Source: Escherichia phage inny. From it: a stretch of 64,000 nt of DNA. The translations under genes and the position numbers were made by a program. This document shows positions 10,699 to 64,000 of this stretch, piece after piece. Under the pieces are notes generated by a model. It saw only the letters and a list, made by a program, of their open reading frames with translations, did no database searches and was not told the origin of the DNA. The stretch lies in the sequence record MN850601.1. One strand, written 5' to 3'. Positions within the stretch are counted from its first letter, which is position 1. Every line of letters starts with the position of its first letter.

Positions 10699-10719
10699 AT
10701 AAAAACTTCGTGATAAGAT
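10691..10719 (+). promoter_or_regulatory. sigma70-like promoter TTGACT-N17-TAAGAT overlapping the nadV stop
   Basis: -35 at 10691..10696, extended TG, -10 at 10714..10719. Confidence 0.5.
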
Positions 10720-10769
10720 TAAGGTAAGGAGAGCCTGCAACTGCCCTGGATGGGCTTCACGAAGGATTT

Positions 10770-10991
10770 ATGAAACAACATAATTTTTATTTTCGTTGCC
10801 GAGCCTGTAACAGACACTTGACTAATCATTCCCGTAGAGACAGGAATGGTAATATTCAAGAGTCGGATCTATGCTCGATTTGTACAAGTTTGGCATTCGA
10901 CGACAGTCCCGAAAGGGTTTATCAACATCAAAGTGTAACTGATCTTCTTCTAAATTACACAGCACCAGAGGAGGAATTAGATTTCACATAA
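10770..10991 (+). CDS. hypothetical zinc-ribbon protein (73 aa)
   Basis: ORF track; CRAC...CSIC cysteine pairs. Confidence 0.5.
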   Translation: MKQHNFYFRCRACNRHLTNHSRRDRNGNIQESDLCSICTSLAFDDSPERVYQHQSVTDLLLNYTAPEEELDFT

Positions 10992-11004
10992 TTAAGGAAA
11001 CAGT

Positions 11005-11115
11005 ATGTCTACAGAAATTATTTTTGGCTTATCTGTTTTTATTGCTATTGTATCTTTTGTATGCGGTTATACACTAGGTTACAGATCAAGAAAAAATATT
11101 GTAAAAACTAGTTGA
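11005..11115 (+). CDS. small hydrophobic protein (36 aa)
   Basis: unlisted short ORF; AAGGAAA SD 7 nt upstream of ATG; single hydrophobic helix IIFGLSVFIAIVSFVCGYTLGY. Confidence 0.3.
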   Translation: MSTEIIFGLSVFIAIVSFVCGYTLGYRSRKNIVKTS

Positions 11116-11141
11116 CAACATAGCTAGTTATTTGCTAAGAT
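11112..11141 (+). promoter_or_regulatory. sigma70-like promoter TTGACA-N18-TAAGAT
   Basis: -35 at 11112..11117, -10 at 11136..11141. Confidence 0.5.
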
Positions 11142-11171
11142 AAGCACAAGTTAAACAAAAAGGAGAAAACT

Positions 11172-11438
11172 ATGACAGAAAAGACTTATGGTAAAGAATT
11201 GATTGAGAAGCACGTATTGATTGATAATAAAGGTGGAGCAATCTTTATTTTTGAACCTGAATCAGTTCTTACTGAAAACGAAAATGGTAGCGTTAGCCTT
11301 AAAACAGAAAGTTTGGTAATTGACTTCCTTGCTCTTCTGGATGAAATGGGGCTTCCTCACGAAGAAGAAGCAGCTATTGCTTTGATTGCAGTTCTTCTGG
11401 AGAAACGCGAAGCTGGTGAAATGACCCAGTATGCTTAA
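11172..11438 (+). CDS. hypothetical protein (88 aa)
   Basis: ORF track; AAAGGAG SD. Confidence 0.55.
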   Translation: MTEKTYGKELIEKHVLIDNKGGAIFIFEPESVLTENENGSVSLKTESLVIDFLALLDEMGLPHEEEAAIALIAVLLEKREAGEMTQYA

Positions 11439-11445
11439 TATTCAA

Positions 11446-11521
11446 GGTTCCATAGCTCACTGACGAGAGCGCACACCTCATAAGTGTCGAGGGCAGGGAT
11501 TGTAACCCTGGGGAACCACCA
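11446..11521 (+). tRNA. tRNA-Met/Ile2-type (anticodon CAT), non-canonical T-loop
   Basis: hand-folded cloverleaf: acceptor GGTTCC/GGAACC, D-stem GCTC/GAGC, anticodon loop CTCATAA, encoded CCA; T-loop ATTGTAA (A54, T58) instead of TTCGAAT. Confidence 0.6.
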
Positions 11522-11552
11522 TTTAAAAGGAGGTGCTATGCATCTCCTATAT

Positions 11553-11638
11553 GCAAGTGTGGTGGAATTGGTGATACACATTGTGCTTAAAACGCAACGC
11601 TTAAATGATTGAGGGTTCGAATCCCTCCACTTGCACCA
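11553..11638 (+). tRNA. tRNA-Leu (anticodon TAA), type II
   Basis: acceptor GCAAGTG/CACTTGC, 3-bp D-stem, anticodon loop CTTAAAA, long variable arm, T-arm GAGGG-TTCGAAT-CCCTC, A73, CCA. Confidence 0.85.
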
Positions 11639-11640
11639 AC

Positions 11641-11746
11641 GCCTAGTAGGGTATTTGGTAATTCCGAGGCCATCAAAGCCTGAAAAATATGTTAGACCGT
11701 TTTGTCTAACTAAATACGAAATATGGTTCGATTCCATAACTAGGCT
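11641..11746 (+). tRNA. atypical 106-nt tRNA-like element (candidate anticodon TCA)
   Basis: perfect 7-bp acceptor GCCTAGT/ACTAGGC, D-like arm with GG loop, 4-bp stem with loop CATCAAA, extra 7-bp hairpin GTTAGAC-CGTTTT-GTCTAAC, canonical T-arm TATGG-TTCGATT-CCATA; no CCA encoded; too long for a standard tRNA. Confidence 0.3.
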
Positions 11747-11781
11747 CCCGATTTAAATAGTAATTTTTTAATAAAAATATC

Positions 11782-11810
11782 TTGACATTTACTTAGTTTT
11801 TTGTTATAGT
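11782..11810 (+). promoter_or_regulatory. sigma70-like promoter TTGACA-N17-TATAGT with extended TG
   Basis: -35 at 11782..11787, TG at 11802..11803, -10 at 11805..11810; 12 nt upstream of the tRNA at 11822. Confidence 0.6.
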
Positions 11811-11821
11811 CATTATGAAAA

Positions 11822-11903
11822 CGGGGTGTATCTCACCTGACTTCTAATCAGGCGTTAACCGAGTAATTGGAGTATGCAGGTTCGAATCCTGTCACCCCGG
11901 CCA
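11822..11903 (+). tRNA. tRNA-Arg-like (anticodon TCT) lacking a canonical D-arm
   Basis: acceptor CGGGGTG/CACCCCG, only 7 nt (TATCTCA) before a perfect anticodon arm CCTGA-CTTCTAA-TCAGG, 23-nt variable region with CCGA-GTAA-TTGG hairpin, T-arm GCAGG-TTCGAAT-CCTGT, G73, CCA. Confidence 0.45.
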
Positions 11904-11921
11904 AAAAGTTTTAAAAACTAC

Positions 11922-11951
11922 TTGACAAGCAAGATAGTTTTATGTTAGATT
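11922..11951 (+). promoter_or_regulatory. sigma70-like promoter TTGACA-N17/18-TTAGAT
   Basis: -35 at 11922..11927, TG then -10 around 11945..11951. Confidence 0.55.
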
Positions 11952-11966
11952 TAAAGTATGGTAACA

Positions 11967-12056
11967 GGAAGGTAGGGCGCAGCGGTGCGCAACCAGGTTT
12001 GAACCCTGGCCCATTGTAGCGATACGGTGATGGTTCGACTCCATTATCTTCCTCCA
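11967..12056 (+). tRNA. tRNA-Ser (anticodon TGA), type II
   Basis: acceptor GGAAGGT/ATCTTCC, anticodon arm CCAGG-TTTGAAC-CCTGG, 19-nt variable arm, T-arm GATGG-TTCGACT-CCATT, CCA. Confidence 0.85.
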
Positions 12057-12075
12057 AATTCGCTTAGGAGCTTTA

Positions 12076-12227
12076 TGAATTATAAAACTATTGGACAGAT
12101 TGTTACCGGAGTTAAGATTGTAAATAATAAAGTTGTTTATGAGTATTCTAATCTTCAACAATCTGAAGATGGTAAGAATATTCGTATGGTAAAAGCAGAA
12201 CAAAAAGATTCCGGTTGTTTTGAATAA
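12076..12227 (+). CDS. small hypothetical protein (50 aa)
   Basis: ORF track 12027..12227 starts inside tRNA-Ser; trimmed to ATG at 12076 behind TAGGAG SD. Confidence 0.3.
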
Positions 12228-12235
12228 TTAAGAAC

Positions 12236-12321
12236 GGTAGATTGGTGAAATGGTAGCCACAACAGTTTGCTAAACTGTCGTCGGAAACGGCGTGTAGGTT
12301 CAAGTCCTACATCTACCGCCA
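12236..12321 (+). tRNA. tRNA-Ser (anticodon GCT), type II
   Basis: acceptor GGTAGAT/ATCTACC, 3-bp D-stem GTG/CAC, anticodon arm ACAGT-TTGCTAA-ACTGT, long variable arm, T-arm GTAGG-TTCAAGT-CCTAC, G73, CCA. Confidence 0.85.
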
Positions 12322-12377
12322 AGTTATCTTTAATGTAGCTTGTTGCTCTTAGTTGCTTGGTGTAACTTTTTGGAAGG

Positions 12378-12439
12378 ATGGCTGCAACCATCTTACTTTA
12401 ATAGAGTAAACTTTCGGCAGATGGCCCCCACCATCTTAC
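12378..12439 (+). repeat. two near-identical hairpins (GGATGG-loop-CCATCTTAC), spaced about 45 nt
   Basis: 12378..12397 AAGGATGG-CTGCAA-CCATCTT and 12422..12439 AGATGG-CCCCCA-CCATCT; both followed by TTAC; stems resemble the T-stem of the upstream tRNA-Ser. Confidence 0.5.
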
Positions 12440-12491
12440 CGATACCTCATAGTTAGTGGTGCGAACACTGGCTATTTTAAAGATAATTTAT

Positions 12492-12567
12492 ACATCGTTA
12501 GCTTAGTTGGTAGAGCAAGGGGCTTTTAACTCCAAGGTCGAAGGTTCGAATCCTTCACGATGTACCA
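12492..12567 (+). tRNA. tRNA-Lys (anticodon TTT)
   Basis: perfect acceptor ACATCGT/ACGATGT, D-arm GCTT-AGTTGGTA-GAGC, anticodon loop CTTTTAA, T-arm GAAGG-TTCGAAT-CCTTC, A73, CCA. Confidence 0.8.
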
Positions 12568-12572
12568 AACAC

Positions 12573-12659
12573 GTAGGTATCGCATAGCGGCAATTGCTGG
12601 AGACTGTAAATCTCCTGCCCTTCGGGGCTTCGTTGGTTCGAGTCCAACTACCTGCACCA
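12573..12659 (+). tRNA. tRNA-Tyr (anticodon GTA), type II
   Basis: acceptor GTAGGTA/TACCTGC, anticodon arm GGAGA-CTGTAAA-TCTCC, variable hairpin GCCC-TTCG-GGGC, T-arm GTTGG-TTCGAGT-CCAAC, A73, CCA. Confidence 0.85.
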
Positions 12660-12666
12660 AATTAAA

Positions 12667-12751
12667 GATGGATTGGCCTAGTGGTTGGGCGACGGACTGT
12701 TAATCCGTGAACGAAAGTTCTAGCAAGGTTCAAATCCTTGATCCATCGCCA
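12667..12751 (+). tRNA. type II (Ser-like architecture) tRNA with anticodon GTT (Asn-type)
   Basis: acceptor GATGGAT/ATCCATC, 3-bp D-stem GCC/GGC, perfect anticodon arm ACGGA-CTGTTAA-TCCGT, 15-nt variable arm with GAAC-GAAA-GTTC hairpin, T-arm CAAGG-TTCAAAT-CCTTG, G73, CCA. Confidence 0.7.
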
Positions 12752-12830
12752 AATAGTGCTTGTAGAGTTAATAGAAACCTCTAGAATTTTCTAGAATTGT
12801 AGGTATCAAATCCTACCAAGCAAATATTTT

Positions 12831-12905
12831 GCTCCTATCGTATAACGGCTATTACGGTTGCCTTGTAAGCAACTTATCAGGGTTCGAGTCCTTGTGGGAG
12901 CACCA
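12831..12905 (+). tRNA. tRNA-Thr (anticodon TGT)
   Basis: acceptor GCTCCTA/TGGGAGC (one G-U), anticodon arm GTTGC-CTTGTAA-GCAAC, T-arm CAGGG-TTCGAGT-CCTTG, A73, CCA. Confidence 0.8.
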
Positions 12906-12927
12906 ATTTAACTCTAAAGGAGTGTAT

Positions 12928-13251
12928 GTGACAGAAAAAGAGTTAGAGAAATATTTTAATATCAATGTTTTCGATGGTTTTGATGATATTGAAGATGTTG
13001 AAAGATATTATGAAGTAGAGTTAGATAAGGATAACATTGTAATTCTTTCTGCCACTTATGATTGTGCATATTATGAAGGCGAATCTCACGTTTATTTCTA
13101 TGATATGAAAACATCTTTGTTTTATGAAGTACACGCATATCATTGTTCTTGTTATGGCTTAGAAGGTCAGTGGGAACCTGAAGAAATAGGTGATTTGAGC
13201 TTTACGGTTGCATATCTAAACAGACGTGGTGCATCTACTATTTTAAAATAA
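12928..13251 (+). CDS. hypothetical protein (107 aa)
   Basis: ORF track 12829..13251 begins inside tRNA-Thr; trimmed to GTG at 12928 behind AAGGAG SD. Confidence 0.5.
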   Translation: MTEKELEKYFNINVFDGFDDIEDVERYYEVELDKDNIVILSATYDCAYYEGESHVYFYDMKTSLFYEVHAYHCSCYGLEGQWEPEEIGDLSFTVAYLNRRGASTILK

Positions 13252-13265
13252 ATATTAAAAGCCTC

Positions 13266-13295
13266 TTGACAAAGGGGCTAATAATATGTTAGAGT
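13266..13295 (+). promoter_or_regulatory. sigma70-like promoter TTGACA-N18-TGT-TAGAGT
   Basis: -35 at 13266..13271, TG at 13287..13288, -10 at 13290..13295; upstream of tRNA-Gly. Confidence 0.55.
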
Positions 13296-13306
13296 AATAT
13301 TGTTAA

Positions 13307-13381
13307 GCGGGTATAGTGTTAATGGTAGCATATGAGGTTTCCACCCTCCAGGTGCAGGTTCAAGTCCTGTTACTCGCTCCA
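13307..13381 (+). tRNA. tRNA-Gly (anticodon TCC)
   Basis: acceptor GCGGGTA/TACTCGC, anticodon loop TTTCCAC, T-arm GCAGG-TTCAAGT-CCTGT, U73, CCA. Confidence 0.8.
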
Positions 13382-13480
13382 AGATTATTTAAATGGAATC
13401 GCTAGAGAAAATTTCTCTTTTCGCTCATGGTTTTCTCCTTCAAACTCTAGCGGTTCTTTTTAAGTGATTTTTAGTTTTAT

Positions 13481-13555
13481 TGGAGATTAGCCTAGTGGGA
13501 AGGCAACGGCCTTTGAAGTCGTGATGACTAGGTTCGATTCCTAGATCTCCAGCCA
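13481..13555 (+). tRNA. tRNA-Gln (anticodon TTG)
   Basis: acceptor TGGAGAT/ATCTCCA with U1-A72, D-arm GCC-TAGTGGGAA-GGC, anticodon arm ACGGC-CTTTGAA-GTCGT, T-arm CTAGG-TTCGATT-CCTAG, G73, CCA. Confidence 0.8.
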
Positions 13556-13562
13556 ATATTTA

Positions 13563-13638
13563 CAGTGCGTAGCGCAGTTGGTAGCGTGGGAGCCTTGGAC
13601 GCTTCAGGTCGCAGGTTCGAGTCCTGCCGCACTGACCA
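13563..13638 (+). tRNA. tRNA-Pro (anticodon TGG)
   Basis: acceptor CAGTGCG/CGCACTG, D-arm GCGC-AGTTGGTA-GCGT, anticodon arm GGAGC-CTTGGAC-GCTTC, T-arm GCAGG-TTCGAGT-CCTGC, A73, CCA. Confidence 0.85.
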
Positions 13639-13643
13639 AATTT

Positions 13644-13718
13644 GCAGAGATAGCTGAGACGGATTAGTGCTACCCTGAAAAGGTAGAAAGGATGGATCGT
13701 TACCATCTCTCTGCACCA
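13644..13718 (+). tRNA. tRNA-Phe (anticodon GAA), non-canonical T-loop
   Basis: perfect acceptor GCAGAGA/TCTCTGC, perfect anticodon arm CTACC-CTGAAAA-GGTAG, T-arm GATGG-ATCGTTA-CCATC (A54 and T58 swapped relative to consensus), A73, CCA. Confidence 0.7.
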
Positions 13719-13795
13719 GATAACACCATCCAAGGAGAATACTTGGTTAACTGTCAATAGCACATTGAGGCTTCTTACAGTGGTGTACTTATTAT

Positions 13796-13880
13796 GGCTA
13801 AGTGGTGGAATGGTATACACGATACGCTTAGAACGTATTGCCCCAAGGGATTGTGAGTTCGAGTCTCACCTTAGCTACCA
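13796..13880 (+). tRNA. tRNA-Leu (anticodon TAG), type II
   Basis: acceptor GGCTAAG/CTTAGCT, 3-bp D-stem GTG/CAC, anticodon arm ATACG-CTTAGAA-CGTAT, variable hairpin, T-arm GTGAG-TTCGAGT-CTCAC, A73, CCA. Confidence 0.85.
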
Positions 13881-13895
13881 AATTATTACAGGTTT

Positions 13896-13974
13896 CGCGG
13901 GATAGAGGAGTCTGGTCGTCCTCGCCAGTTTCATATGCTGGAGATCGTAGGTTCAAATCCTACTCCCGTTACCA
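13896..13974 (+). tRNA. tRNA-Met/Ile2-type (anticodon CAT), second copy, unpaired 1-72
   Basis: acceptor CGCGGGA/TCCCGTT with C1 opposite U72, D-arm GAGG-(11 nt)-CCTC, anticodon arm CCAGT-TTCATAT-GCTGG, T-arm GTAGG-TTCAAAT-CCTAC, A73, CCA. Confidence 0.65.
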
Positions 13975-14032
13975 ATAAATACCTCCCTTCTGGTGTAATG
14001 ATTAAATTACATTGACACTTCAAGGAACTCAT

Positions 14033-14115
14033 AGCCGGGTAGATTTAAAAGAGTATGGTACTCAATATGGCTCCAAACCATAGATCAGGGGGTTCGATTC
14101 CTCACCTTGCTGCCA
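14033..14115 (+). tRNA. tRNA-Trp-like (anticodon CCA) with expanded D region
   Basis: anticodon arm TATGG-CTCCAAA-CCATA, T-loop TTCGATT, G73, CCA; best acceptor AGCCGGG/CCTTGCT has one C-U mismatch and leaves about 9 extra nt before the D-stem GAGT/ACTC. Confidence 0.4.
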
Positions 14116-14120
14116 ATTAT

Positions 14121-14196
14121 TGTGGTATCGTACAGATGGTTAGTACACTCGACCGATAATCGAGAAACAACGGTTCGACTCCGTTTACCACGACCA
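14121..14196 (+). tRNA. tRNA-Ile (anticodon GAT)
   Basis: acceptor TGTGGTA/TACCACG, D-arm GTAC-AGATGGTTA-GTAC, anticodon arm CTCGA-CCGATAA-TCGAG (C33), T-arm AACGG-TTCGACT-CCGTT, A73, CCA. Confidence 0.75.
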
Positions 14197-14310
14197 AACT
14201 CCGTGCCAGCGGTGTCTTCGAAGAACAAGCCTAGTTCCTTCTGAGATGGAGGGGTGCGACTCCTTAACGCACAACATACTACTACTACTAAATACTTATC
14301 AGGAGATATC

Positions 14311-14580
14311 ATGTATACTTTAAAAGTAATTCGCAAGTTTCCTCAAGAAGAGGAAGTAAGAATTTATAACACTGTACCATTCGTAGTAAATGAAGAAGAA
14401 TTCTTTTATTGCTTAGAAGATGAAGTAATTATTCAATATCATTGGGAAGGTTACGACAGACAAGATGGTGTTGTAGCTTCTGTGCTTGCTGGTGACAGAG
14501 TGTTATTCATTCACAAAACTGAATCAGCATATTTAATGAATGATAAAGGACAAACTGTTAAAGTAATTAACAGACCATAA
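14311..14580 (+). CDS. hypothetical protein (89 aa)
   Basis: ORF track 14254..14580 trimmed to ATG at 14311 behind AGGAG SD. Confidence 0.5.
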   Translation: MYTLKVIRKFPQEEEVRIYNTVPFVVNEEEFFYCLEDEVIIQYHWEGYDRQDGVVASVLAGDRVLFIHKTESAYLMNDKGQTVKVINRP

Positions 14581-14593
14581 AGAATTTTATAAA

Positions 14594-24363: not shown

Positions 24364-24392
24364 TTGCAATAAGTCTGTTTTTGATGTATACT
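24364..24392 (+). promoter_or_regulatory. sigma70-like promoter TTGCAA-N17-TG-TATACT
   Basis: -35 at 24364..24369, -10 at 24387..24392. Confidence 0.5.
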
Positions 24393-24406
24393 AAAAAGGA
24401 GATACA

Positions 24407-30244: not shown

Positions 30245-30270
30245 AGCCTCGCTTCGGCGGGGCTTTTTAT
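30245..30270 (+). terminator. intrinsic terminator (AGCCTCGC-TTCG-GCGGGGCT + T5)
   Basis: GC hairpin with TTCG loop plus U-tract after tape-measure stop. Confidence 0.7.
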
Positions 30271-30275
30271 TTGTC

Positions 30276-30305
30276 TTGACAAAGAGTTGTTTTTCGTGAT
30301 AAAAT
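30276..30305 (+). promoter_or_regulatory. sigma70-like promoter TTGACA-N18-TG-TAAAAT
   Basis: -35 at 30276..30281, -10 at 30300..30305. Confidence 0.55.
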
Positions 30306-30352
30306 GAGTGATAAGGGAGAAGGTTTCTTATCACATTAAGAGGTAAAATTAT

Positions 30353-54250: not shown

Positions 54251-56830
54251 CTAGTGACAAGACGCCCATGAGTTACCAACATCGTAACCAGCAGTGAGAG
54301 GTACATTAAGATTGTAATACTCACCAGCTTTATTAACAGCGATAGATGCTAATTCTCCAGCACGACTGTAGGCTGTAAACCAACCACCTTTCGGAGATTC
54401 ATGTACGTTAGCCCAAATCTTGCCAGTACGTTTCTCTTCCTCTTCTTTCCAGGCATTAACCTTATCCAAACATTCTTTATCAATTTTCTTTTGTTCTTCT
54501 GGATCATCAACTTGAGTCCAACCTAAAGATTCTTTAGAAAACCATTTAAAATGCACCAGATCACGAGTTACTTCAAGCTGTGCTTCATCGTGATATGCAA
54601 TCATTTGTTGAACGAATGACTTATTTTTCCAGTCATCAACAAAAAAGTCAACAGCTAATCCTTCTTCTTCGATAAGATCGTCGTAGATAACCATTGCTCT
54701 TTTTGCACAAATAACACCACCACTCTGGAACAGAGAGTTAAGTATTGCGTGTGCAGATCGTGTAGGTACTTTTCTACCATCAATACCAAGAATGTATTTC
54801 TTACCTGTTTTAACCCAAAAATCATGCAGACGTTCTTTAAGAAGCGCAAGAGGTTTTGCAGCTTCCCAGAAAGCATCGTATACAAGTTGTCCTGTATACA
54901 TATCACTACCTATAGTTTTTGCTACTTTTGCAGCTTGAGCACCATAAGTAATACCATACTTAACAGATTTAGCAGGGCTTCGTTCAAACTTACGACCAAT
55001 AGTGTCAGAAATACGTCGAGCCATCATTGTATGAACATCATTAGGTTTTTCCAATAATAGAGCATTACAATATTCGTGTGGTTCCTGCTCGTACCGCCAA
55101 CAGTAGTGTGATTCTATTTTTGCCTCAAGAGAATCAAAGTCATAACCAATTTGGAAGTATTTTGGAACTTCTACACCAAATAAGTTACGCATTTCATATC
55201 CGTACAGAGATGTTACACGTGGGATATTTGCTACTAACCTATGTTTCATACGAGACGTAGCTGCATCACACGTTGCAGCAGGGGTTGGTATACGACCATC
55301 AGCCCTTACTGCCGCCAGATAACCTTTATCGTAATCCTCTTCATCTTCTTCCCAATCAGCACCACCACCTAGGATAGAGTTTCTACGATGTTTATACGTA
55401 AGATATTGCACAATCTGCGTAGCATAAGGAAACTTTTCACCCAGTGCTTCCAAGTTAGGACAAATATCTTTCTCTTGCCCTTTTGTAAAGGAAGGGTTAG
55501 TAAGCACTTTAACACCACGACCTTTAGCTTTAGCAATACGATCTCTTAGTTTCCATTCCAAAGTTTCTGGTGTGCACTCCAGATGATCACATCTGTCCTG
55601 GCAGAAGTTAGATGCTAATGTTTGATCAACATAGTCACGAATAGCTTTCTCCATTTGTGCTTCATCTTTCTTAATCTTAGTGCCAGATTTAAGAGTGATA
55701 TCTTTATCTTTATATTCAGATGGACTCCAACCTAAACCAACTAACCAGTTTTTAATATGTGTAGTGTCGTCTAAAGTAGCAGGTACTGTAGGATCACAAA
55801 TAGGTTCTTCTGCTGGAATAGGGAGTTTAAACTCTTTACCTAATGCAAATAGCCACCAACCATCTTCTTTTTGTACAAGTTCACCAGAATGTTTCTCTGC
55901 AAACTTTATCATGTTACTTGAAGGTTCACCATTCTTTTTAAACTGTAGTTTAGGTGGAATGAATGATTTCAAATAACCTTTAGTAGCAGGTTTAGGAGGT
56001 AACACAGGTTCTGCCTCTAAACGACATGCTTCCATTCGAGCATCCAGATCACGAATATTATCTTCTGCTTGTTTCATATTGAAAGCAAAGCCACGGTGCT
56101 CTTGACGTGTAATAATATCAGCTACACGTTGTTCTAAGTTAAAGGGTTCAGACCATTTATTATAATCACCCCACTCTTCCATCAAATAACGGAATACTGC
56201 GGTGTTAGCTTTGTTATCGTAAATACAGTAATACAGCATATCTGCTGCAAATGTTTTAAATCTTTCAGTTTCAGGAATGTTTTTTCTAAAATCAATTTTA
56301 ACATCCCCTCCAGCTTTCTTAGATAACTCTGCCAGACTATGACCACCGAAGCGATCAGGGTTTAGTGTCTTACTTAAGATCATAGTATCACAAATTTCAA
56401 TGTTACTATTACCCCAAGTATTGTACTTAATACTGTAGTTGAGTTTAAAAAATAATTTAATTGCCAGTAAGTCAAAGTTAATGATGTTATGTCCAACTAC
56501 TTTGGTAATTTTATAGTTTGAATTACCTTTAAATTTACCTGTTCCATTTACAAAATCAGGAAAATCTTTAAGAGGGAAATGGGTATATTCTAAATGCTCA
56601 TATTCCTCCAGTCGGTATTCATACTTTCCGTCAGTCTCAACATACGGACGACCATCGAAAAGATATTTATCACCATCATGGAAAGCAATAATCTCTCCAG
56701 TATCATGACTTTCGCACACAATACAGTGCATTGCAAAACTATCTTTTAAACGATATGGACTTGCCAAGTAATCTACACTTTCGTCATTAAGCAAGTTGTT
56801 ACTTTCAATGTCGAAAGTAAAAGCTCCCAT
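54251..56830 (-). CDS. DNA polymerase, family A, with 3'-5' exonuclease domain
   Basis: 859 aa; Exo I FDIES near N-terminus; motif B KSVKYGITYGA and motif C YHDEAQLE. Confidence 0.9.
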   Translation of the reverse strand: MGAFTFDIESNNLLNDESVDYLASPYRLKDSFAMHCIVCESHDTGEIIAFHDGDKYLFDGRPYVETDGKYEYRLEEYEHLEYTHFPLKDFPDFVNGTGKFKGNSNYKITKVVGHNIINFDLLAIKLFFKLNYSIKYNTWGNSNIEICDTMILSKTLNPDRFGGHSLAELSKKAGGDVKIDFRKNIPETERFKTFAADMLYYCIYDNKANTAVFRYLMEEWGDYNKWSEPFNLEQRVADIITRQEHRGFAFNMKQAEDNIRDLDARMEACRLEAEPVLPPKPATKGYLKSFIPPKLQFKKNGEPSSNMIKFAEKHSGELVQKEDGWWLFALGKEFKLPIPAEEPICDPTVPATLDDTTHIKNWLVGLGWSPSEYKDKDITLKSGTKIKKDEAQMEKAIRDYVDQTLASNFCQDRCDHLECTPETLEWKLRDRIAKAKGRGVKVLTNPSFTKGQEKDICPNLEALGEKFPYATQIVQYLTYKHRRNSILGGGADWEEDEEDYDKGYLAAVRADGRIPTPAATCDAATSRMKHRLVANIPRVTSLYGYEMRNLFGVEVPKYFQIGYDFDSLEAKIESHYCWRYEQEPHEYCNALLLEKPNDVHTMMARRISDTIGRKFERSPAKSVKYGITYGAQAAKVAKTIGSDMYTGQLVYDAFWEAAKPLALLKERLHDFWVKTGKKYILGIDGRKVPTRSAHAILNSLFQSGGVICAKRAMVIYDDLIEEEGLAVDFFVDDWKNKSFVQQMIAYHDEAQLEVTRDLVHFKWFSKESLGWTQVDDPEEQKKIDKECLDKVNAWKEEEEKRTGKIWANVHESPKGGWFTAYSRAGELASIAVNKAGEYYNLNVPLTAGYDVGNSWASCH

Positions 56831-56898
56831 TCTCCCTCCTTAAAATATTTCTAAAGTCTTAATTTGTTAATACTGTACCACAAATTAATTGTTTTGTA

Positions 56899-56925
56899 AA
56901 GGGGCTTTCGCCCCTTCTTGTTATT
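56899..56925. terminator. GC hairpin GGGGC-TTTC-GCCCC with T-run
   Basis: between DNA polymerase start and the stop of the 56921..57316 gene. Confidence 0.5.
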
Positions 56926-63305: not shown

Positions 63306-63815
63306 TTAGCGATAAAATTGATGTTCTTTGTAGCGGTACACTAGAACCATATCTTTTTCCCAGTGTGCTCTTATTGTAGATTTTTTAAAGTATAATGCTC
63401 CTTTTGTAATATCTAATGCAATTCGTAATTCTGGAAAATGCGTATCGAGATAAAGTAGACGTTCTGCTATAGCCTTAGCTTCCTTCCACTTATCACGTTC
63501 CATAACGTTGAATGTCTTTGTGTAAGAGAATTGTCCTTTTTGAAACAAAACTTCTTTTATAGTATCAGGGAAATATGAATCTCTAGCCCTATTCAATACT
63601 ACATTACCAACAGCAGACATACCGCGCTTTCCTTGATTACGACTTTCTGCATAGATTGCACAAGCTAATAGATTTTCTTTACTATCACGCTTTGTACACT
63701 TGTGAACTACTTTAGCAGTTTTTACGTTTGCAGCTTCGGCTTGCGCCACAACAGGTGTAAATGTAAAAGCAGTTAAGGATAGTAACGCAATTGCGACAAA
63801 GGTTTTTATTGACAA
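63306..63815 (-). CDS. secreted cell-wall hydrolase, SleB-like domain
   Basis: 169 aa; TTG start behind AGGAGG; signal peptide ending VVAQA; SleB-family block AIYAESRNQGKRGMSAVGNVVLNRARDSYFPDTIKEVLFQKGQFS. Confidence 0.55.
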   Translation of the reverse strand: MSIKTFVAIALLSLTAFTFTPVVAQAEAANVKTAKVVHKCTKRDSKENLLACAIYAESRNQGKRGMSAVGNVVLNRARDSYFPDTIKEVLFQKGQFSYTKTFNVMERDKWKEAKAIAERLLYLDTHFPELRIALDITKGALYFKKSTIRAHWEKDMVLVYRYKEHQFYR

Positions 63816-63908
63816 ACTTGCCTCCTATTTTGTTAAACGAACTTTTATTGTAACACAGAAGAGGCTGTTTTGCAAGTGGAGGGGGGATAATCCCCCTCTT
63901 AGACTCTG

Positions 63909-64000
63909 TTAGATATTGTAAACCTTTGTATGAGTTACTACACCATCTTCTACAAAATCAATACGTTCTTGATCCGTAACTAGTGCAGACAACACTTTAA
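63909..64000 (-). CDS. hypothetical protein, 3' end only (gene starts beyond window end)
   Basis: minus-strand frame open from window edge to TAA at 63911..63909; followed by GC hairpin at 63879..63898. Confidence 0.3.
   Translation of the reverse strand, partial: KVLSALVTDQERIDFVEDGVVTHTKVYNI

Follow-up and report, generated by a model that had tools for sequence, protein, structure and literature searches.

A SleB-like hydrolase of Escherichia phage inny with a predicted Sec export signal is probably accessory to a separate GH24 endolysin

A gene for a SleB-like protein with a predicted export signal is located in a minus-strand gene block of Escherichia phage inny, and raises the question of whether its product is the endolysin of this phage, a hydrolase used during entry into the cell, or an enzyme with another task. 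The analysis covered a stretch of 64,000 nucleotides of sequence record MN850601.1 (hereafter the 64-kb window) and homologues of the gene in other phages. The limits that a preliminary description had given for the gene, 63306..63815 on the minus strand, coincide exactly with the open reading frame, and its statement that the gene lies far from the spanins agrees with a distance of about 47 kb between the two loci. Features of the gene and its surroundings are compiled in Table 1.

Table 1. Features at the SleB-like gene, its neighbours and the spanin pair, with positions counted from the first letter of the 64-kb window.
Feature	Position	Strand	Basis or remark
CDS of the SleB-like (Hydrolase_2) protein, putatively exported	63306..63815	(-)	169 aa, TTG start, intact ORF; orthologue of phi92 gp170
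Predicted Sec signal peptide, codons 1-26	63738..63815	(-)	MSIKTFVAIALLSLTAFTFTPVVAQA; sequence rules; predicted cleavage after AQA
Folded SleB-type catalytic domain, codons 38-169	63309..63704	(-)	pLDDT 89-99 from residue about 38; Foldseek
Glu57 codon GAA, predicted catalytic Glu, motif YAESR	63645..63647	(-)	aligns with YGESRGE of SleB 4f55
Shine-Dalgarno AGGAGG	63821..63826	(-)	GGAGGC invariant in six lineages
Sigma-70-type promoter TTGCAA-17 nt-TACAAT, TG-extended	63847..63875	(-)	conserved in six lineages
Pyrimidine box GCCTCTT in promoter spacer	63859-63865	(-)	complementary to Shine-Dalgarno; anti-SD pairing predicted
GC-rich hairpin GAGGGGG-ATTATC-CCCCCTC	63879..63898	(-)	abuts -35 on its upstream side; no U-tract
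Upstream gene, 3' end, phi92 gp171 homologue	63909..64000	(-)	last gene after Ter-like cluster beyond the window
Downstream gene, phi92 gp169 homologue, 92 aa	63017..63295	(-)	Pfam hits sub-threshold only
i-spanin	15324-15755	(+)	N-terminal TMD, coiled coil
o-spanin	15661-15990	(+)	lipobox LMMTGC; overlaps i-spanin

The deduced protein is 99.4% identical to gp170 of phage phi92 over 169 aa, the same value applies to about 20 other Justusliebigvirus records, and the neighbouring genes match as well. Overall, the inny region containing the gene shows 99.0-99.5% identity to phi92-like coliphages (Justusliebigvirus, Stephanstirmvirinae). Names for the gene vary between databases ("hypothetical protein", "putative cell wall hydrolase", "cell wall hydrolase SleB", "endolysin"), the last of these being used in RefSeq and several GenBank records. 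Annotation is also inconsistent in that the BASEL records give the name 'endolysin' to another gene of these phages, which encodes a GH24 lysozyme. The gene, its signal peptide and the "two lysins" of such phages are already recorded in databases and in the literature, where relatives of inny are described as encoding both a GH24 lysozyme and a Hydrolase_2 protein for lysis (PMC12210895, PMC10793346).

Based on profile, fold and catalytic-Glu motif, the SleB-like protein belongs to the Hydrolase_2 family. Pfam PF07486 (Hydrolase_2) was matched by residues 61-168 over profile positions 2-100 of 100 (E-value 6.5e-20; 72.1 bits at a cut-off of 27), and PHROG 938, a group labelled endolysin, was matched with an E-value of 1.5e-20. 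At the sequence level, the SleB chains 4f55 and 4fet align with the protein through the catalytic motif. An AlphaFold2 model calculated from an alignment of 70 homologues reached a pLDDT of 90.9 and, in a Foldseek search against the PDB, gave hits to SleB catalytic domains alone (4fet and 4f55; probability 1.0), with TM-scores of 0.70-0.77 on the target, an rmsd of 2.5-3.0 Å over about 130 columns and 23-24% identity. Ahead of the folded domain, residues 27-37 represent a low-confidence linker, and a helix comprising residues 4-16 was also modelled with low confidence. All 72 aligned homologues have Glu57, Gly65, Arg76 and His165 in common, and Cys40 and Cys52, belonging to an HxC...LAC motif, form a pair common to the nearer homologues shown, rV5 included. 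Since the catalytic Glu is invariant, the protein is regarded as an enzyme. The SleB-family domain noted previously is thus confirmed, at a level well above chance, by Pfam, PHROG, the fold match and the invariant Glu57.

The protein is not SleB proper, i.e., an orthologue of the spore cortex-lytic enzyme: it comprises one Pfam domain only, the N-terminal PG_binding_1 domain of SleB proper is absent, and the host is E. coli. By analogy with SleB, the protein probably acts as a lytic transglycosylase through Glu57. SleB requires muramic-delta-lactam, which is missing in E. coli, and the transfer of SleB chemistry to the phage protein is therefore an extrapolation.

Export of the SleB-like protein by the Sec pathway is very likely, judging from its N-terminal sequence. 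The segment MSIKTFVAIALLSLTAFTFTPVVAQA, followed by EAANVK, contains Lys4, then a 20-residue uncharged hydrophobic stretch, Pro at position -6 and Ala at positions -3 and -1. According to sequence rules and homologue comparison, n-, h- and c-regions as well as an Ala-X-Ala site are present, and this type of N-terminus is conserved across homologues. The end of the segment resembles those of the signal peptides of E. coli OmpA (..ATVAQA) and PhoA (..LFTPVTKA). A lipoprotein signal was also considered and rejected, since there is no Cys within or close to the signal region. After removal of the predicted signal, the protein would have a mass of about 16.8 kDa and would be basic, with a pI of 9.7. 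The ending VVAQA, from which the preliminary description had proposed a cleavable signal peptide, was seen in the sequence, and its cleavability is supported by the sequence rules and the homologues.

In order to define the homologue set, an exhaustive representative search was used, yielding 6144 relatives, in comparison to 19, close relatives only, obtained by a word-indexed search. Among the best 150 of the 6144 together with the close relatives, 147 had room for an export segment ahead of the catalytic motif, and a hydrophobic N-terminal export segment was found in 138 of these 147 representative homologues. The N-termini of the T5 orthologue (MKAAWLLVAALTFSFSSQA, ending SQA before Ser) and of the rV5 orthologue (VKIKIFAIILSAFLSLPVVA, ending VVA before Ala) are short classical signal peptides. 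The signal sequences of T5, rV5 and inny are mutually unrelated, yet of the same signal type. Export is therefore considered a conserved property of the family, given the 138 of 147 homologues and the T5 and rV5 signals.

An N-terminus of this kind could also remain uncleaved, as proposed for the signal-anchor-release (SAR) type, in which it would tether an inactive enzyme until depolarisation by a holin or pinholin frees it as a second, timed lysis enzyme. An uncleaved tether is conceivable because the h-region extends over as many as 20 uncharged residues, with a summed Hessa-scale hydrophobicity (+0.93) near that of the SAR domains of R21 and P1 Lyz (0.5-0.8). In its content of Gly, Ala, Ser and Thr (45%) the segment is also compatible with a SAR domain, but none of these residues is Gly, compared with 4-5 Gly in SAR domains, and a peptidase site, Pro at -6 and Ala-Gln-Ala before Glu, is placed at its end. 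Hydrophobic, anchor-like N-termini without Ala-X-Ala occur in PaP1 gp029 and KPP10 gp143 of Pseudomonas phages, whereas the h-regions of the T5 and rV5 orthologues, with about 12 residues, are below membrane-spanning length. Moreover, where a lysin of a Gram-negative phage has a predicted signal peptide, a published survey regards this as a sign of SAR export (PMC8223927); against a SAR function in inny stand the absence of a pinholin candidate nearby and the dispensability of the orthologue in phage Bas54, described below. With no Gly, a peptidase site and no partner holin among the neighbouring genes as read by eye, the protein appears to lie outside the SAR type on sequence grounds, and a cleaved signal peptide is placed well ahead of a SAR tether, which is rather unlikely. 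Regarding the SAR option raised in the preliminary description, the similarity in hydrophobicity stands, while the lack of Gly, the Ala-X-Ala site and the missing neighbouring pinholin speak against it.

Hydrolase_2 homologues of the SleB-like protein were found in 1147 phage records. Copies from Phapecoctavirus share 75-79% identity and have the upstream hairpin and promoter in common with inny. Homologues of V5-like Vequintavirinae share about 40% identity, among them rV5 ORF2 (gp2 'SleB'; 40%, E-value 2e-40), and those of T5-like Demerecviridae about 35%, restricted to the catalytic domain. Pakpunavirus, Nankokuvirus and other phages also have homologues. In V5-like, T5-like and other virulent phages, the export signal is almost always present. 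The gene setting elsewhere comprises a position next to rIIA (rV5), in the T5 early region or next to the DNA ligase gene (PaP1, KPP10). In the paper on Pectobacterium phage CB7, the SleB-like protein was described for all Vequintavirinae genera, and CB7_83 has a predicted signal peptide and is toxic when expressed (PMC7344957). For Salmonella phages, a SleB-domain "endolysin far from holin" was described, the holin-adjacent endolysin being an M15 peptidase (PMC11180984), and in the T5-like phage AKFV33 the early region contains genes for a lysozyme, a holin and SleB (PMC3326045). The published statements that were found when searching for experimental work on phage Hydrolase_2 enzymes are at annotation level only.

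A candidate for the canonical endolysin is encoded elsewhere in these genomes. The phi92 protein gp061 (166 aa, Pfam Phage_lysozyme) is a GH24 lysozyme of the T4 e type with a T4 gene-e-like N-terminus lacking a signal, and every close relative encodes such a signal-less enzyme. The GH24 gene maps beyond the 64-kb window, and no second muralytic gene was identified within the window. In phi92, gp061 adjoins the PhoH gene and thus occupies the same site as PVP-SE1 gp146, which is a biochemically characterised endolysin (PMC3352856). At a threshold of at least 95% identity, 55 phage records were obtained for gp061 and 54 for the SleB-like gene, so that both genes co-occur throughout the genus, the nearest relative PaulScherrer included.

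Transposon sequencing of the V5-like phage Bas54 provides information on both types of genes. In the "putative cell wall hydrolase" gene bas54_0065 (501 nt), which overlaps rIIA by 4 nt as does rV5 ORF2, insertions were recovered at 32 of 36 sites, and the gene was classed as non-essential; the endolysin gene bas54_0202, with insertions at 0 of 24 sites, was classed as essential (preprint 10.1101/2025.11.20.689424, supplement). The dispensability of bas54_0065 applies to a phage of another subfamily, with 40% identity, grown in the laboratory on E. coli K-12, and leaves room for a contribution to lysis. In T5, CRISPRi-ART scored T5.083 as 'Not Fit'; T5 lys was scored alike, and this dataset therefore says nothing about the SleB-like gene.

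Furthermore, the canonical endolysin differs between phages that share the SleB-like gene. BLASTP detected no similarity between the phi92 lysozyme and that of rV5 (E-value 0.5), though both are described as Phage_lysozyme, whereas the SleB-like proteins of the same two phages share 40% identity. The T5 endolysin is an M15 peptidase, and the canonical endolysin of CB7 is a putative M15 peptidase (PMC7344957). Comparison of these sequences suggests that the endolysin slot appears to be exchanged between related phages. Since the canonical endolysin type changes while the SleB-like gene is retained, the pattern fits a separate accessory role of the latter.

According to a competing view, the SleB-like protein would be the principal endolysin, exported early by Sec as is Lys44 of Oenococcus phage fOg44 and held in check until de-energisation, with the GH24 enzyme serving another purpose. 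Besides the endolysin label of PHROG 938, the toxicity of the CB7 homologue and its overlap in Certrevirus with a candidate holin with two TM segments (PMC7344957) are in favour of this view, but it is difficult to reconcile with the Bas54 orthologue being non-essential and the canonical lysozyme being essential. In addition, gp061 is a stand-alone, T4 e-like protein of 166 aa rather than a gp5-like hub and shares the position of PVP-SE1 gp146, the BASEL annotation assigns the endolysin function to the GH24 gene, and inny has no holin-like gene adjacent to the SleB-like gene. A role as principal endolysin is accordingly judged quite improbable. By analogy with the Bas54 orthologue, and considering the GH24 gene in close relatives, the protein would not be an enzyme required for lysis in the manner of Lys44. 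The signal-peptide endolysin proposed in the preliminary description is thus not supported, because all close relatives possess a GH24 lysozyme and because it is the canonical endolysin, and not the orthologue, that is essential in Bas54. A separate canonical endolysin, which that description had itself named as an argument against its proposal, is largely provided by the GH24 lysozyme of the relatives.

The SleB-like gene belongs to a minus-strand block that also contains the DNA polymerase gene and glycosyltransferase genes. In phi92-like and phAPEC8-like phages, a Ter-like cluster is located directly upstream, corresponding to phi92 gp172-gp182 and encoding TerD, vWA-TerF-like, TelA and TerC proteins (Pfam). 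On the downstream side, the gp169 homologue is unlike a holin, since its longest uncharged hydrophobic segment comprises about 13 residues as read by eye. A holin gene immediately downstream of the SleB-like gene, of the kind proposed for CB7_82, was sought but not found. No transmembrane-length uncharged hydrophobic segment was seen in the neighbouring ORFs when their sequences were read by eye, and no holin was identified within the 64-kb window. The nearest lysis genes in the window are those of the spanin pair, immediately upstream of the large terminase gene; phi92 gp118 is annotated as 'Rz-like spanin'.

Further differences from phi92 were observed in other parts of the window. The DNA polymerase ORF at 54251-56830 on the minus strand encodes 859 aa, compared with 1104 aa annotated for phi92 gp159, and coordinate offsets imply that about 0.73 kb is missing from the 3' part of the polymerase gene relative to phi92. 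The tRNA region and the stretch ahead of the spanins (about 10700-15300) are about 2.5 kb longer than in phi92, the length difference being taken from the phi92 offsets (40346 at the spanins, 42819 at the right end). A 140-aa ORF at 12829-13251 in this longer region was not matched to the phi92 annotation.

The position of the gene also bears on whether its product could be a virion-associated hydrolase that opens the cell wall for DNA ejection, as had been considered in the preliminary description. A peptidoglycan-degrading domain and a gene distant from the other lysis genes would suit this function; the Sec signal, however, would carry the protein into the periplasm, whereas virions are assembled in the cytoplasm, and the gene resides in a block for replication and metabolism, not among tail genes. 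In CB7, the genome region of CB7_83 contributed a single structural protein, CB7_55, to those detected by virion mass spectrometry. Moreover, the text of the rV5 paper does not list gp2 with the virion proteins that it names, the 2026 paper on the phi92 virion structure does not mention gp170, hydrolase, lysozyme or peptidoglycan, and the Bas54 orthologue is dispensable. The protein is hence not placed with the hydrolases that are found in the virion and encoded with tail or baseplate genes. The entry option is disfavoured by export signal, genomic position, CB7 virion proteomics and Bas54 dispensability, and is regarded as highly improbable.

An exported protein of this kind could also have been selected for a role other than lysis, binding or remodelling the wall in order to block superinfection, to infect non-growing cells or to act in envelope stress together with the Ter-like genes. 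This explanation would account for conservation of the gene in Stephanstirmvirinae, Vequintavirinae, T5-like and other virulent phages whose endolysins are swapped, for the dispensability of the Bas54 orthologue in the laboratory, for the location in replication-type gene blocks (with rIIA, the T5 early region or DNA ligase as neighbours) and for the Ter-like cluster upstream in phi92. The invariant catalytic Glu, on the other hand, indicates an enzyme, and the conditional comparison for bas54_0065 was not significant (log2FC -0.88, p 0.50) in the accessible part of the Bas54 study (10.1101/2025.11.20.689424). A function of the protein apart from lysis is consequently considered unlikely.

Signals for expression are concentrated in the 91-nt gap upstream of the SleB-like gene, which contains the hairpin, promoter, pyrimidine box and Shine-Dalgarno sequence. 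Their layout (63813-63898), including the TTG start, is kept in six lineages whose proteins range down to about 61% identity. The hairpin stems differ among the six lineages and are mutually complementary in each of them; a terminator scan did not call the hairpin at 63879..63898. The exact form of the promoter represents a single site in the window, other matches in the pattern search carrying one mismatch. The pyrimidine box precedes the expected transcription start, so that only read-through transcripts would contain it and have their ribosome-binding site masked. In five of the six lineages, the predicted accessibility of the Shine-Dalgarno sequence was 0.03-0.17 on read-through RNA versus 0.34-0.61 on promoter-initiated RNA. 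No covariation of the anti-SD helix was found in the six-lineage alignment, in which both arms are invariant, and the helix is therefore not provable from this alignment. Such masking on read-through RNA is reminiscent of how T4 gene e is controlled. The layout and the TTG start in combination suggest tightly limited expression, as would fit a product that is harmful in excess.

The timing of expression was not derived from the promoter class, since similar promoters, often behind GC hairpins, precede the DNA polymerase and structural genes; the rV5 paper likewise states that promoter type does not set timing. Sigma-70-like promoters, several of them TG-extended, precede genes at 18100-18180, 19760-19833, 24365-24406, 30260-30352 and 56831-56920, the genes behind them being structural genes and that of the DNA polymerase. 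A GC-rich hairpin is located directly upstream of the promoters at 30260-30352 and 56831-56920. Host-type promoters thus seem to be used throughout the phage.

Considering these results together, the SleB-like protein is probably a muralytic enzyme that is exported by Sec to the periplasm and has an accessory role beside the GH24 endolysin, without being the main lysis enzyme. This role is the most likely one because a related phage can do without the orthologue but not without a separate lysozyme. In the mechanism that we infer for inny, including signal-peptide cleavage, enzymatic chemistry, timing and accessory role, a single-domain enzyme of the SleB/CwlJ fold would be made with a cleavable Sec signal peptide, and the mature enzyme would be released to the host periplasm with no holin needed. 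There it would cut peptidoglycan as a lytic transglycosylase by means of Glu57. The essential endolysin would be the signal-less GH24 lysozyme (phi92 gp061), acting together with a holin and with the spanin pair at 15.3-16.0 kb. Expression of the SleB-like enzyme would be limited by a separate promoter located behind a hairpin, by the weak TTG start and by the predicted masking of the Shine-Dalgarno sequence on read-through RNA. Tentatively, a more specific possibility may be put forward, namely that the enzyme is no lysis protein but a conserved, dose-limited periplasmic remodeller of peptidoglycan with a conditional role (in the infection or lysis of non-growing cells, in the control of superinfection, or in envelope stress alongside rII or Ter-type genes), and that a translation gate similar to that of T4 gene e would leave the ribosome-binding site accessible on transcripts of its own promoter only.

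Inconsistent annotation of the gene can mislead work on lysis cassettes as well as the mining of lysins for antibacterials. Moreover, the pattern is widespread: the unrelated phi92-, V5- and T5-like lineages of virulent coliphages keep a SleB-fold enzyme, apparently exported by Sec, beside an interchangeable endolysin, which raises the question of why several virulent phage lineages retain such an enzyme. Identification of the condition in which the enzyme matters would be a modest advance and would leave the view of phage lysis unchanged.

Among known systems, phi92 gp170 and the Justusliebigvirus copies represent the same gene and differ in database names only. The products of rV5 gp2, Bas54_0065 and CB7_83 are like the inny protein in length, signal peptide, HxC...LAC motif and Hydrolase_2 domain, and their genes are likewise located outside the structural module of phages having a separate canonical endolysin. 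The rV5 and Bas54 genes share 4 nt with rIIA and encode a shorter signal peptide, whereas the inny gene is preceded by a Ter-like cluster and equipped with a separate promoter. T5.083 ('sleb' ORF078), with counterparts in other Demerecviridae, is also a putatively exported single-domain Hydrolase_2 protein of a virulent coliphage, and the real endolysin of T5 is another enzyme whose gene adjoins the holin gene; T5.083 deviates from the inny protein in its cysteine pattern and lacks a linker, and its gene is not directly preceded by a separate promoter. Bacillus SleB (4f55, 4fet), a germination-specific lytic transglycosylase, has the catalytic fold and the Y-x-E-S-R motif in common with the inny protein; unlike the latter, it carries a PG_binding_1 domain, and the setting in inny is phage infection of a Gram-negative cell. 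Since the host has no cortex containing muramic-delta-lactam, substrate specificity must differ from that of SleB. Finally, Lys44 of fOg44, P1 Lyz and R of phage 21 are muralytic enzymes that reach the wall via the host Sec system without a holin. Lys44 and the SAR endolysins are sole, essential lysis enzymes of other families, whereas the inny protein occurs beside a canonical endolysin and has a dispensable orthologue.
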